Virus record (IMG/VR): IMGVR_UViG_2850761752_000006
Strand: one strand, 5' to 3'
From: a virus
Taxonomy: Duplodnaviria > Heunggongvirae > Uroviricota > Caudoviricetes
DNA length: 22,991 nt
Part shown: positions 10,482-17,224 of the stretch, piece after piece
Layout: the number at the start of each line of letters is the position of its first letter
Position numbering within the stretch: position 1 is the stretch's first letter
The notes under the pieces: generated by a model
What the model was told of the DNA's origin: nothing
The model's database searches: none
What the model saw: only the letters and a program-made list of their open reading frames with translations
Translations under genes and position numbers: made by a program

Positions 10482-10637
10482 TTACTCCTCAGGTTCGTAA
10501 GCTGTGAAGACAGCGACCTCCGTCTGGCCGGTTCGGATTCGTACCTCGCAGAGGTCTTTCCTCGTTACCAGTGCCGTCACTATGACGGTTAAACAGATGA
10601 CGATAAGGGCGATTAACATCGCCTTTTGCTGCTTCAT
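10482..10637 (-). CDS. hok: Hok/Gef-family type I toxin (HokD/RelF-like, 51 aa); in-frame upstream mok-like extension to 10694
   Basis: MKQQKAMLIALIVICLTVIVTALVTRKDLCEVRIRTGQTEVAVFTAYEPEE is a canonical Hok sequence; the extension MLNTCRLASYVPKGKEKQA resembles the chromosomal mokC arrangement as recalled. Confidence 0.9.
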   Translation of the reverse strand: MKQQKAMLIALIVICLTVIVTALVTRKDLCEVRIRTGQTEVAVFTAYEPEE

Positions 10638-10685
10638 AGCCTGCTTCTCCTTGCCTTTCGGCACGTAAGAGGCTAACCTACATGT

Positions 10686-10750
10686 GTTCAGCATGGATTG
10701 AGCCTCAGATTAATGTTAAGCGTCTTGCAGGACGCGTAGTGTTAACTGGG
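10686..10750 (+). ncRNA. Putative Sok-like antisense RNA over the mok start region
   Basis: Inference from hok/sok architecture: plus-strand TTGCCT (10651-10656), 17-bp spacer, TAACCT (10674-10679) would start an RNA antisense to the mok initiation region. Ends not defined. Confidence 0.3.
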
Positions 10751-10896
10751 GCTTTTCTCTATCTGCCTTTTGGTGTTCATGCCTGAGACAGATAGCCTCA
10801 AGCACCCGCAGTCATTCTACTTAACTAAGATTTCCCTGCAAACCGTTTTTGTCCGGCACAGTAAATATCCAACTAAACCAATAGCGTTCGCTGTAT

Positions 10897-11712: not shown

Positions 11713-11785
11713 ACCGCCCTTTCAGGCGGCGGTAATGCTGCCAACTTACTGATTTAGTGTATGATGGTGATTTTAAGGTGCTTGC

Positions 11786-12061
11786 GTGGCTTCCATTTCC
11801 ATCAGATGTCCTTCCTGCTCCGCTACTGAAGGCGTGGTGCGTAACGGCAAAAGCACTGCCGGACATCAGCGCTATCTCTGCTCTCATTGCCGTAAAACAT
11901 GGCAACTACAGTTCACTTACACCGCCTCTCAGCCCGGTACGCACCAGAAAATCATTGATATGGCCATGAATGGCGTCGGATGTCGCGCCAGTGCACGCAT
12001 TATGGGCGTTGGCCTCAACACGGTTTTACGTCACTTAAAAAACTCAGGCCGCAGTCGGTAA
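11786..12061 (+). CDS. insA: IS1 InsA
   Basis: 91-aa [46 protein letters not shown]... with zinc finger plus HTH. Confidence 0.95.
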
Positions 12062-12483
12062 CCTCGCGCATACAACCGGGCAGTGATGTGATTGTCTGCG
12101 CTGAAATGGACGAACAGTGGGGCTACGTCGGTGCTAAATCACGTCAGCGCTGGCTGTTTTACGCGTATGACAGGATACGGAGGACGGTTGTGGCGCACGT
12201 CTTCGGTGAACGCACTCTGGCCACACTGGAGCGTCTTCTGAGCCTGCTGTCGGCCTTTGAGGTCGTGGTATGGATGACGGATGGCTGGCCGCTGTATGAA
12301 TCACGCCTGAAGGGAAAGCTGCACGTTATCAGCAAGCGTTACACTCAGCGCATTGAGCGACATAATCTGAATCTGAGACAACATCTGGCAAGGCTGGGAC
12401 GGAAGTCACTGTCGTTCTCAAAATCGGTGGAGCTGCATGACAAGGTCATCGGGCATTATCTGAACATAAAACACTATCAGTAA
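11980..12483 (+). CDS. insB: IS1 InsB reading frame (expressed as InsAB' by -1 frameshift)
   Basis: 167-aa ORF overlapping insA in the -1 frame, standard IS1 layout. Confidence 0.9.
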
Positions 12484-12578
12484 GTTGGAGTCATTACCTC
12501 AGGCGGCCTCCTGATGTTCTGAGGGTGCAGAAATCCCTCCGGTTAAGGATTAAATTTTATTTGCTGTGCTAAATTTAA

Positions 12579-14927: not shown

Positions 14928-15353
14928 TCAATGCACAGCCACAATATTTCCTGCAGGGCCACCACGATTCATCTGGTTGAAACCAGCGATCGCCACTGCG
15001 ACAAAATCATCAGCGTCTCTCACCAGTCGTTCCCGCGTCTCCACTAGTTCCCGAAAATAGGCTGAGCTATGGCTGCGCATTCGGGCCACCAGCAGAGGTG
15101 GCATTGCTTTTTCGATAGCTGGTAACAACGCCTGAATTTTTTTAAGCGCATCAGGGGTGTCTTTCTCCACCCAGCGGAAAATTTTCTGAGTATTGCGAGC
15201 CAGGGCTTCCGGATGGCTGTCGTCATACAGTTCCGGGAACGTCATTCCCAGCTCGAAATACGCTTTGGTAATTTTCGCAGCCGGTACTTTTTCGCCGTCC
15301 GGATGCGCCCAGGCATTCATCGCCATGCGGATGTGTTCATGCTTGATTTTCAT
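14928..15353 (-). CDS. YdaT-like protein (Rac-type regulator, CII-position gene)
   Basis: 141-aa ORF beginning MKIKHEHI..., the start I recall for the YdaT family; directly downstream of and overlapping (ATGA) the cro-like gene. Confidence 0.6.
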   Translation of the reverse strand: MKIKHEHIRMAMNAWAHPDGEKVPAAKITKAYFELGMTFPELYDDSHPEALARNTQKIFRWVEKDTPDALKKIQALLPAIEKAMPPLLVARMRSHSSAYFRELVETRERLVRDADDFVAVAIAGFNQMNRGGPAGNIVAVH

Positions 15354-15604
15354 GAATCAACTCCCATCAGCTTTTTCGTAGTAGTTTTATTCCTGCCAAT
15401 AGTTAAAATTGCATCGGCAGAAAATAATCCGTTTGATGCAAGAGCGATTTTTTCAGCGTAATTTGTTTCGCCGGTATATTCTGTGCGAGGCAATTTTCCG
15501 TTATCCATCCATTTATAGATTGCTCTTTGGCTGACACCACAAACGTCGGCCACAACAGCAACGCGAACAGTTTTGATTACATCTTCAAGTGTTTTCTGGT
15601 TCAT
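15350..15604 (-). CDS. Cro/YdaS-like HTH regulator (start at MNQKTLED; longer ORF to 15676 possible)
   Basis: HTH segment VADVCGVSQRAIYKWMDNGKLP; divergent from the repressor gene. The longer start would consume the operator region. Confidence 0.6.
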   Translation of the reverse strand: MNQKTLEDVIKTVRVAVVADVCGVSQRAIYKWMDNGKLPRTEYTGETNYAEKIALASNGLFSADAILTIGRNKTTTKKLMGVDS

Positions 15605-15683
15605 ATCACCCTCACAATGTGAACTTTGAGTACATGCTATAACAGAACTGACAGTACATTCAAGAGCGAATATCATTGAACTT
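15605..15683. promoter_or_regulatory. Divergent promoter/operator region between cro-like and repressor genes
   Basis: 79-bp intergenic region containing AGTACATG (15629-15636) and AGTACATT (15653-15660). Confidence 0.55.
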
Positions 15684-16103
15684 ATGGTTCATGAAGATAA
15701 AGCGCGTAAAGAGTTCGCCAGTAGGCTTGCGCTAGCCTGTGAAAACGCTGGTTATGAACAACATGGAAGGCAGGCAGAAATTGCCCGTCGAATGAAATTA
15801 ACACCAAAAGCGGTTAGCAAATGGTTTAATGGCGAAACAATTCCTCGCCGGGAGAAATTAAGGGAATTAGCAACACTAATAGGAACAACACCAACCTATC
15901 TTTTGGGAGAGGATACAGAAGAAAGTGGACAGGTACGTTTCTATCAGGAGTTAAATCCAAGACAAAAAATCATCATTGACCTTCTGGACGAGCTCCCTGA
16001 CAGTGAGACAGATGAACTTTTAAAAACTCTTGAAGAGAAAAAACAGAAGTACAATGCAATTTACGAAGAGTTAGCACGAAAGAAAAAACAAAAAGCCTCT
16101 TAA
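15684..16103 (+). CDS. DicA/RacR-like XRE-family prophage repressor
   Basis: 139-aa ORF with N-terminal HTH (GRQAEIARRMKLTPKAVSKWFNGETIP) and C-terminal region ...IIIDLLDELPDSETDELLKTLEE... like the DicA C-terminus as recalled. Confidence 0.75.
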   Translation: MVHEDKARKEFASRLALACENAGYEQHGRQAEIARRMKLTPKAVSKWFNGETIPRREKLRELATLIGTTPTYLLGEDTEESGQVRFYQELNPRQKIIIDLLDELPDSETDELLKTLEEKKQKYNAIYEELARKKKQKAS

Positions 16104-16434
16104 ACCAGCATAAATCCGGTAGCGCCTTCCTCCGGGTTTGTGCTTCACTTTATCCCATCTCATTTTTTTACACACAAAATGTACCATAAGCACTTTACAA
16201 CAATGAACGCAAAGTACATTATATACCTGCCACCCACCCCGCCCCACAGAATGCAGGGCAATACTTCGAGTTACCAGGCAGTGGTCAGGGGTTAAGTAGC
16301 CAGCCCGAGGCGTAAGAACATGACGGCAGGGTTCAACTTTAATAACTATGCAGCAGGTTTTTGTTCCGCTACCCCGGCGTTAAGGGGAAATGAGGTCAGC
16401 ATGGATACTATCGATCTTGGGTAATGACTCCAAC

Positions 16435-16938
16435 TTACTGATAGTGTTTTATGTTCAGATAATGCCCGATGACCTTGTCATGCAGCTCCACCGATTTTGA
16501 GAACGACAGTGACTTCCGTCCCAGCCTTGCCAGATGTTGTCTCAGATTCAGATTATGTCGCTCAATGCGCTGAGTGTAACGCTTGCTGATAACGTGCAGC
16601 TTTCCCTTCAGGCGTGATTCATACAGCGGCCAGCCATCCGTCATCCATACCACGACCTCAAAGGCCGACAGCAGGCTCAGAAGACGCTCCAGTGTGGCCA
16701 GAGTGCGTTCACCGAAGACGTGCGCCACAACCGTCCTCCGTATCCTGTCATACGCGTAAAACAGCCAGCGCTGACGTGATTTAGCACCGACGTAGCCCCA
16801 CTGTTCGTCCATTTCAGCGCAGACAATCACATCACTGCCCGGTTGTATGCGCGAGGTTACCGACTGCGGCCTGAGTTTTTTAAGTGACGTAAAACCGTGT
16901 TGAGGCCAACGCCCATAATGCGTGCACTGGCGCGACAT
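16435..16938 (-). CDS. insB: IS1 InsB reading frame
   Basis: Identical 167-aa translation to copy 1. Confidence 0.9.
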
Positions 16939-17132
16939 CCGACGCCATTCATGGCCATATCAATGATTTTCTGGTGCGTACCGGGCTGAGAGGCGGTGTA
17001 AGTGAACTGTAGTTGCCATGTTTTACGGCAATGAGAGCAGAGATAGCGCTGATGTCCGGCAGTGCTTTTGCCGTTACGCACCACGCCTTCAGTAGCGGAG
17101 CAGGAAGGACATCTGATGGAAATGGAAGCCAC
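16857..17132 (-). CDS. insA: IS1 InsA
   Basis: Identical 91-aa translation to copy 1. Confidence 0.95.
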
Positions 17133-17224
17133 GCAAGCACCTTAAAATCACCATCATACACTAAATCAGTAAGTTGGCAGCATTACCCTGCAACCGCTAT
17201 GAAAAAGGCGGGAAAGATGGCATC

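Follow-up and report, generated by a model that had tools for sequence, protein, structure and literature searches.

The closest described counterpart of the locus treated here is the immunity region of coliphage HK022, in which three 15-bp oR and two 15-bp oL sites are annotated as "repressor binding sites" (GenBank X16093.1). The locus itself, comprising a repressor gene, a divergent cro-like gene and their putative operators, lies on a 22,991-nucleotide stretch of Caudoviricetes DNA (IMG/VR record IMGVR_UViG_2850761752_000006; the whole stretch is hereafter called the window), a Shigella prophage remnant that also carries the effector gene ipaHb. A previous reading of this DNA from its letters alone (the sequence-only reading) had noticed that a short motif, AGTACAT, recurs on both sides of the repressor gene and in a palindrome upstream of ipaHb. 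It proposed that these copies may be operator half-sites and raised the possibility that the prophage repressor also binds upstream of the effector gene.

The HK022 immunity region (oR1-3, oL, cI and cro) was reportedly characterized by Oberto et al. in 1989 and by Carlson and Little in 1993. The C-terminal half of HK022 CI is a RecA-cleavable oligomerisation/peptidase domain. HK022 CI binds cooperatively to adjacent operators and mediates looping between OL and OR (PMC8053113). Repressors of the DicA class, e.g., in the DicA/DicC switch of the Qin prophage, have no site for RecA cleavage, and antirepressors or protein destabilisation control them (bioRxiv 10.1101/2023.04.14.536235).

The third system of relevance is the activator MxiE, which acts upstream of ipaHb. 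MxiE box promoters of Shigella type III secretion system effector genes are said to have been described by Mavris et al. in 2002. The box follows the consensus GTATCGTTTTTTTAnAG (PMC9769918), in which positions G1, G6, T7-T10, T12, A14 and A16 are essential (PMC3299695), and spans positions -49 to -33 of the promoter (Bongrand et al. 2012, PMC3299695). The box of ipaHb works when put into the ipaH9.8 promoter, and the native ipaHb promoter is weak (PMC3299695).

Here, we describe five sites around the repressor gene of the window which, at a probability of roughly 0.88, represent operators of an HK022-immunity-type lambdoid switch, with the palindrome upstream of ipaHb being an unrelated element, namely the MxiE box of this gene.

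Results

Five putative operators flank the repressor gene

A distant DNA search matched the cro-oR-cI region of coliphage HK022. The genes and putative operators in the corresponding part of the window are the following:

15350-15604, minus strand: gene of a Cro-like regulator, 84 amino acids
15620-15634: OR1, TGAACTTTGAGTACA; exact dyad whose right half holds AGTACATG (15629-15636, between the cro-like and the repressor gene); located in the cro leader, just 3' of the cro-ward -10
15644-15658: OR2, AGAACTGACAGTACA; one mismatch to the dyad, with the right half holding AGTACATT (15653-15660, likewise between the two genes)
15677-15691: OR3, TGAACTTATGGTTCA; perfect palindrome that includes the repressor start codon (15684) and no AGTACAT
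15684-16103, plus strand: gene of the immunity repressor, 139 amino acids, whose N-terminal helix-turn-helix domain resembles HK022 CI and whose short C-terminal domain is DicA-like
16180-16194: OL2, TGTACCATAAGCACT; weakened copy that holds the inverted motif AATGTAC (16178-16184, 3' of the repressor gene)
16204-16218: OL1, TGAACGCAAAGTACA; exact dyad that overlaps the -10 of a PL-like promoter and holds AGTACATT (16213-16220, 3' of the repressor gene)

The true unit behind the motif is a 15-bp dyad, TGAAC-N5-GTWCA, of which AGTACAT represents the right half plus flanking bases. Three distinct sites in the window match this dyad exactly (four matches, as the palindromic OR3 is counted on both strands) vs. 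0.09 matches expected, an approximately 40-fold enrichment, and all of them are confined to the immunity region. OR2 joins the set when one mismatch is permitted; altogether, three of the five sites fit exactly, one with a single mismatch and one with two. With centres at 15627, 15651, 15684, 16187 and 16211, the sites are spaced by 24 and 33 bp between the divergent cro-like and repressor genes (OR1-3) and by 24 bp 3' of the repressor gene (OL2 and OL1). An unbiased repeat finder likewise placed OR1, OR2 and OL1 in a single family spaced by 24 bp.

When aligned, the annotated oR and oL sites of HK022 occupy exactly the same columns as the five sites of the window, with the 24/33/24-bp spacing alike. 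In the HK022 sequence (L001), OR1, OR2 and OR3 correspond to oR at 430-444, 454-468 and 487-501, and OL2 and OL1 to oL at 1262-1276 and 1286-1300. OR3 has the same letters as its HK022 counterpart, which also includes the cI start codon; this ATG is invariant in seven phages. The approximately 23,000 positions of the window were ranked with a weight matrix that drew on no sites but the five of HK022 and is hence independent of the window. The five sites took ranks 1-5, in the order OR3 (18.7 bits), OR2 (16.8 bits), OL1 (16.5 bits), OL2 (15.3 bits) and OR1 (13.2 bits), and the sixth site scored 9.7 bits.

Moreover, we compared six relatives, i.e., HK022, Tritos, vB_EcoS-666R9, Citrobacter phage Omnitron, Klebsiella phage 2 LV-2017 and Providencia phage PSTNGR2lys. 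Half-sites, spacing and the ATG within OR3 are invariant among them, while the 5-bp centres and the intergenic flanks diverge, and the conservation of the half-sites spans phages of four host genera (Escherichia, Citrobacter, Klebsiella and Providencia). Such a pattern is a classical phylogenetic footprint.

For the copies on either side of the repressor gene, a role as operator half-sites is thus supported, because the five sites match the HK022 oR/oL columns, spacing and matrix and because both the DNA-binding domain of the repressor and Cro are homologous to their HK022 counterparts. All copies listed by the sequence-only reading are present (at 15629, 15653, 16213 and 16178 and within 1241-1276). 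It had recognised the GTACA half of the operator and had overlooked the paired TGAAC half, the whole of OR3 and the overlaps with promoters. The sites are an unannotated, newly described member of the well-known HK022 operator family.

The repressor combines HK022-type DNA binding with a DicA-like body

Residues 4-102 of the repressor share 47% identity with HK022 CI (E 6e-32), where the alignment ends, and the recognition region is near-identical (TPKAVSKWFNGE vs. TPKAISKWFNGE in HK022 CI). Residues 30-139 align to a DicA-type repressor of enteroinvasive Escherichia coli (EIEC; E 2e-14). Among Pfam families, HTH_3 was matched and only helix-turn-helix families came up; an S24 peptidase domain was not found in the 139 residues, which places the protein outside the RecA-cleavable LexA/S24 type. 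It carries instead the C-terminal LPESE...FNKLFEEL-type segment of the DicA class, and a ydfA-dicB type operon lies nearby in phage Tritos and E. coli SCU-113. The repressor is 100% identical to that of Tritos. A search of the PDB gave a single marginal match, the N-terminal domain of P22 C2. The Cro-like regulator shares 60% identity with HK022 Cro from Met1 onwards (E 1e-33), and the same 255-bp cro-like gene is annotated in E. coli SCU-113 (RefSeq).

Compared with HK022, the window hence shows the same 15-bp dyad, the same number of sites, the same overlaps with promoters of the pR and pL types and an OR3 that includes the repressor ATG. The two differ in the repressor body, as HK022 CI has its C-terminal half and the window repressor a DicA-like C-terminal domain, and in their neighbours, which are nun and cII in HK022 and ydaT, a replication gene and a Qin/Rac-like ydfA-dicB-recE arrangement here. 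With the DicA/DicC switch of Qin and the short repressors of the Gifsy type, the window shares a non-RecA-cleavable repressor of about 135-139 amino acids with a homologous C-terminal segment; further shared features are the divergent cro-like gene and a downstream PL-like promoter (dicBp), which drives ydfA-dicF-dicB in the intact relatives Tritos and SCU-113. In contrast to DicA/DicC, however, the DNA-binding domain and the operators of the window are of the HK022 and not of the DicA/P22 type, no operator motif common to the window and the K-12 or EIEC DicA regions was found, and the dicF-dicB cargo has been deleted by an insertion sequence, IS1. The new point is therefore a short DicA-like repressor body that appears, from its alignments, to be joined to HK022 DNA-binding specificity, a mildly interesting natural domain combination.

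Promoters and the proposed switch

Three promoter-like elements overlap the putative operators:

15636-15663, minus strand: PR-like promoter for cro, assigned by homology, with -35 TTGAAT (15663-15658), -10 TATAGC (15641-15636) and TG before the -10
15648-15676, plus strand: maintenance-promoter-like site for the repressor gene, CTGACA-17-TATCAT, 10/12 in the consensus scan, of presumed function, with its -35 within OR2
16194-16222, plus strand: PL-like promoter towards ydfA, TTTACA-17-CATTAT, from the consensus scan, with a geometry as annotated for HK022 pL

The PR-like promoter, whose positions follow from HK022 pR (L001 468-473 and 446-451), sits between the two sites OR1 and OR2, with its -35 overlapping the latter. 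The hexamers TTTACA and CAT(T/C)AT of the PL-like promoter are kept in six phages, and in the intact Tritos and SCU-113 it heads ydfA-ydfB-ydfC-dicF-dicB-ydfD-recE, a Qin-type dicB operon. Since the maintenance-promoter-like site ends 7 bp before the repressor ATG, it implies a leaderless or near-leaderless mRNA starting within OR3.

By analogy with HK022, repressor dimers would bind adjacent dyads cooperatively. Bound repressor could then block the cro-ward promoter between OR1 and OR2 as well as the leftward promoter, of which OL2 and OL1 bracket the -35 and OL1 overlaps the -10. Occupancy of OR3 would lead to negative autoregulation, as this site holds the repressor start codon and the likely transcription start, and Cro would compete with the repressor for the same sites. 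Relief of repression could proceed via an antirepressor or protein instability, as in the DicA/Gifsy class, and not via RecA-mediated cleavage, because the repressor is without a self-cleaving peptidase.

The palindrome upstream of ipaHb contains the MxiE box

The features at the other end of the window are as follows:

1241-1276: perfect palindrome of 16+4+16 bp, AATGTACTGTTTTTTT-AAAG-AAAAAAACAGTACATT, 5' of ipaHb; very probably not an operator
1244-1260, plus strand: MxiE box of the ipaHb promoter, GTACTGTTTTTTTAAAG, made up of palindrome left arm and loop
1636-3462, plus strand: ipaHb, a 1827-bp open reading frame matching Table 1 of PMC3299695; Pfam NEL and LRR_TTSS; the RefSeq homologue is named ipaHb

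The sequence GTACTGTTTTTTTAAAG agrees with GTATCGTTTTTTTAnAG at 15 of 17 positions, with differences at 4 and 5 and all essential positions kept, and is the sole match to the box in the window at up to three mismatches. The 5' untranslated region of ipaHb was cloned to +331 without its last 12 bp, and an unusual C was noted at the expected start site (Bongrand et al. 2012, PMC3299695). Together these lengths give a 343-nt 5' untranslated region, which puts +1 at 1293 and the end of the box, 1260, at -33; base 1293 of the window is a C, in agreement with the published start. The stretch 1244-1260 is therefore the published, experimentally tested MxiE activator site of ipaHb, with the right arm of the palindrome in the spacer to the -10. 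Compared with published MxiE box promoters, there is no real difference in the ipaHb box, and its distances to the start site and the ATG are correct. The weak promoter would be activated by MxiE/IpgC while type III secretion is active. The words "palindrom" and "inverted repeat" do not occur in the text of PMC3299695 on the ipaHb box.

We also considered whether the other strand holds a second MxiE box. There the arm, read in inverted form as GTACTGTTTTTTTCTTT, loses A14, A16 and G17 and gives no match at up to three mismatches; as it is without essential positions, it is unlikely to be a functional box. A crossover site of the Pin/Gin/Hin invertases (pix/gix type) was considered as well, as a truncated pin gene starts at a distance of about 95 bp from the palindrome, and was rejected by inspection, since the arms AATGTACTGTTTTTTT are unlike the half-site, which we take to be of the TTATCAAAAACC type.

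As for binding of the prophage repressor at this palindrome, the halves TGTAC (1243-1247) and GTACA (1270-1274) are 22 bp apart vs. 5 bp in the operators. Their centres are consequently separated by 27 bp, or about 2.6 helical turns, so that one dimer cannot contact both. The best 15-mers of the palindrome score 6.97 and 6.4 bits with the HK022-only matrix (ranks 18 and 24), as compared to at least 13.2 bits for the true operators, and about 8.5 sites of equal or better score occur per shuffled window.

The shared letters can be accounted for similarly. The 10-mer ACAGTACATT is the same at 15651-15660 and 1267-1276, and its longer form, the 11-mer ACAGTACATTC (15651-15661), recurs at 1240-1250 as its reverse complement. 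The operator regions share four 10-mers with the remainder of the window, where about six are estimated under uniform base composition, and one 11-mer vs. about 1.6 by the same estimate; the shared 10/11-mer is within chance expectation. In the comparison with shuffled sequence, AGTACAT occurs six times vs. 1.78 expected, a number reached by one of 100 shuffles, and the 8-mer AGTACATT four times vs. 0.54 expected, which none of 100 shuffles reached. This nominal enrichment is real but stems from two separate causes. Three AGTACAT copies are true operator halves (OR1, OR2 and OL1) and one (13172) lies within a coding region; the remaining two are the arms of the ipaH palindrome and, as they belong to one palindrome, count as a single event. 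With the operators set aside, one further AGTACATT locus faces 0.54 expected and there is no excess. The occurrence of AGTACATT in the palindrome is a chance resemblance to the operators.

Furthermore, EIEC FDAARGOS_943 has the 36-bp palindrome in identical form, and its ipaHb prophage occupies the same pgl-side locus and has a DicA-type immunity region with a repressor of 29% identity and CTTAGG-type repeats; the exact TGAAC-N5-GTWCA dyad is absent from the 74 kb searched, and AGTACAT from the control regions. A second S. flexneri copy (1a strain 0228) is identical, too, and such operators were not found within 12.6 kb around it. Among 5426 complete E. coli genomes, 1047 carry the immunity module and six carry ipaHb.

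State of the prophage remnant

The element that has removed the dicF-dicB cargo is the following:

16421-17188: IS1 copy, by which ydfA (start at 16320) is truncated

In its place, Tritos and SCU-113 have the ydfB-ydfC-dicF-dicB-ydfD block and the 5' end of recE. With ydfA cut and dicF-dicB and the recE 5' end lost, the switch controls a largely emptied left operon. A second IS1 copy (11731-12497), 100% identical and inverted, brackets together with the first a block of Ead, DUF977, replication, ydaT, cro and repressor genes.

The window is flanked by pgl on the left (1-762) and by tRNA-Ser(cga) (22013-22101) and a gene for an mtfA-like M90 peptidase (22155-22991) on the right. The ipaHb prophage of EIEC FDAARGOS_943 lies between pgl and ybhA and is syntenic with the window only over 1-6634. 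The end of synteny and the differing right flank mark the window prophage as a composite or rearranged remnant. Because of this limited synteny, the tRNA-Ser/mtfA flank in place of ybhA and several insertion sequence elements, a shared phage origin is in doubt, and ipaHb and the immunity region may not come from the same phage.

Next to pgl lies a truncated pin-type DNA invertase gene (approximately 763-1148, minus strand). A minus-strand promoter-like site, TTAAAA-18-TATAAT (1229-1258), faces this gene and has its -35 inside the ipaHb palindrome. Between pin and the MxiE box, a G6 homopolymer (1186-1191) corresponds to G21 in S. flexneri 1a 0228 (L003 6047-6067), which may mean that the tract varies in length or that an assembly is at fault. 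A hok/sok type I toxin-antitoxin locus (10632-10807; Rfam sok, 115.6 bits) adjoins a DUF968 (ydfU-like) gene, and an IS3-family element (19988-21201) with an ALIL frameshift pseudoknot (20804-20920) adjoins a partial tyrosine integrase gene (21340-21984).

Discussion

An origin of all AGTACAT copies by chance in AT-rich intergenic DNA, including those flanking the repressor gene, has in its favour that the motif is short and that one of 100 shuffles also gives six copies of the 7-mer. Given the enrichment of the full dyad and its restriction to the immunity region, the position-for-position homology to the HK022 operators and the half-sites conserved across four host genera, we regard it as practically negligible. 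The ipaH palindrome, for its part, might serve not as a protein-binding site but as a transcription terminator or RNA hairpin, affecting transcripts that read leftward into the truncated pin gene. On the minus strand, a scan called it, weakly, as terminator-like (tail CTATTTTATA after a 16-bp stem with a loop of 4 nt), and the RNA fold reaches -16.1 kcal/mol (z = -8.6); such fold statistics are no independent support, because a perfect palindrome yields them automatically. Moreover, the stem is mostly A-U with three G-C pairs alone, the T tract is interrupted, the palindrome lies outside the ipaHb mRNA, as it is located upstream of the start site 1293 on the plus strand, and the transplant experiments show its left arm to work as an MxiE box. 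Altogether, this makes a terminator improbable, although it is the least improbable of the alternatives considered.

Cross-regulation, in which the prophage repressor also binds the ipaHb palindrome and modulates the effector gene, e.g., by competing with MxiE, was a reasonable idea, since prophage regulators can control host genes, as exemplified by YdaT of the cryptic prophage Rac at rcsA (PMC11879457). Each arm indeed offers a perfect outer half-site plus flank, shared with OL2 in one case (AATGTAC) and with OR2 in the other (CAGTACATT), and AGTACATT is nominally over-represented in the window. The proposal was, however, not borne out by our analysis: the half-sites have the wrong separation, the 15-mers score at background, the shared 10/11-mer is within chance, the palindrome is unchanged beside an EIEC prophage of other immunity and in S. 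flexneri 1a 0228, the immunity module is found in far more E. coli genomes than ipaHb, and the sequence is already accounted for as an MxiE box. Binding of this kind is hence very improbable. The same low expectation holds for a softer variant, in which a repressor of HK022 specificity contacts the two perfect AATGTAC half-sites bracketing the MxiE box weakly, through a half-site or with the help of looping; if true, effector transcription would depend on prophage immunity status, and the unusually weak S. flexneri ipaHb promoter would be explained.

Several points also weigh against the assignment of the five sites as HK022-type operators and of the palindrome as an unrelated MxiE box. The operator function of the sites is itself predicted from homology to HK022. 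At 16191, OL2 of the window reads GCACT vs. GTACT in Tritos, vB_EcoS-666R9, HK022, Omnitron and Klebsiella phage 2 LV-2017, a T-to-C change at a conserved half-site position. HK022 has a further dyad, GGTACTAAAAGTACA (L001 163-177), located approximately 270 bp beyond OR and past cro, which is probably the extra operator mentioned in PMC8053113; a dyad scan of the window found no counterpart to this additional operator 3' of cro. Based on the OL2 change and the missing operator, the switch in the Shigella remnant may be partly degraded. The -10 of the PR-like promoter (TATAGC) is poor and the promoter was missed by the consensus scan. Finally, the MxiE model alone does not explain why the ipaHb box forms part of a perfect inverted repeat of 16 bp. 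An OL3-like site was not found in the window.

For Shigella virulence regulation, the outcome is negative: the ipaHb palindrome is a known MxiE box, and control of ipaH by the prophage repressor is unsupported. The gain lies in annotation, as operators and promoters can be proposed at base resolution for an immunity module that about one-fifth of complete E. coli genomes carry, as does Tritos, a viable phage. Here, nature seems to have combined HK022 DNA-binding specificity with a DicA-type repressor body that is devoid of the RecA-cleavable domain. As the repressor is intact, given its full identity to the Tritos protein, the Shigella remnant may still make its host immune to phages whose operators are of the HK022 type, such as Tritos and possibly HK022 itself.

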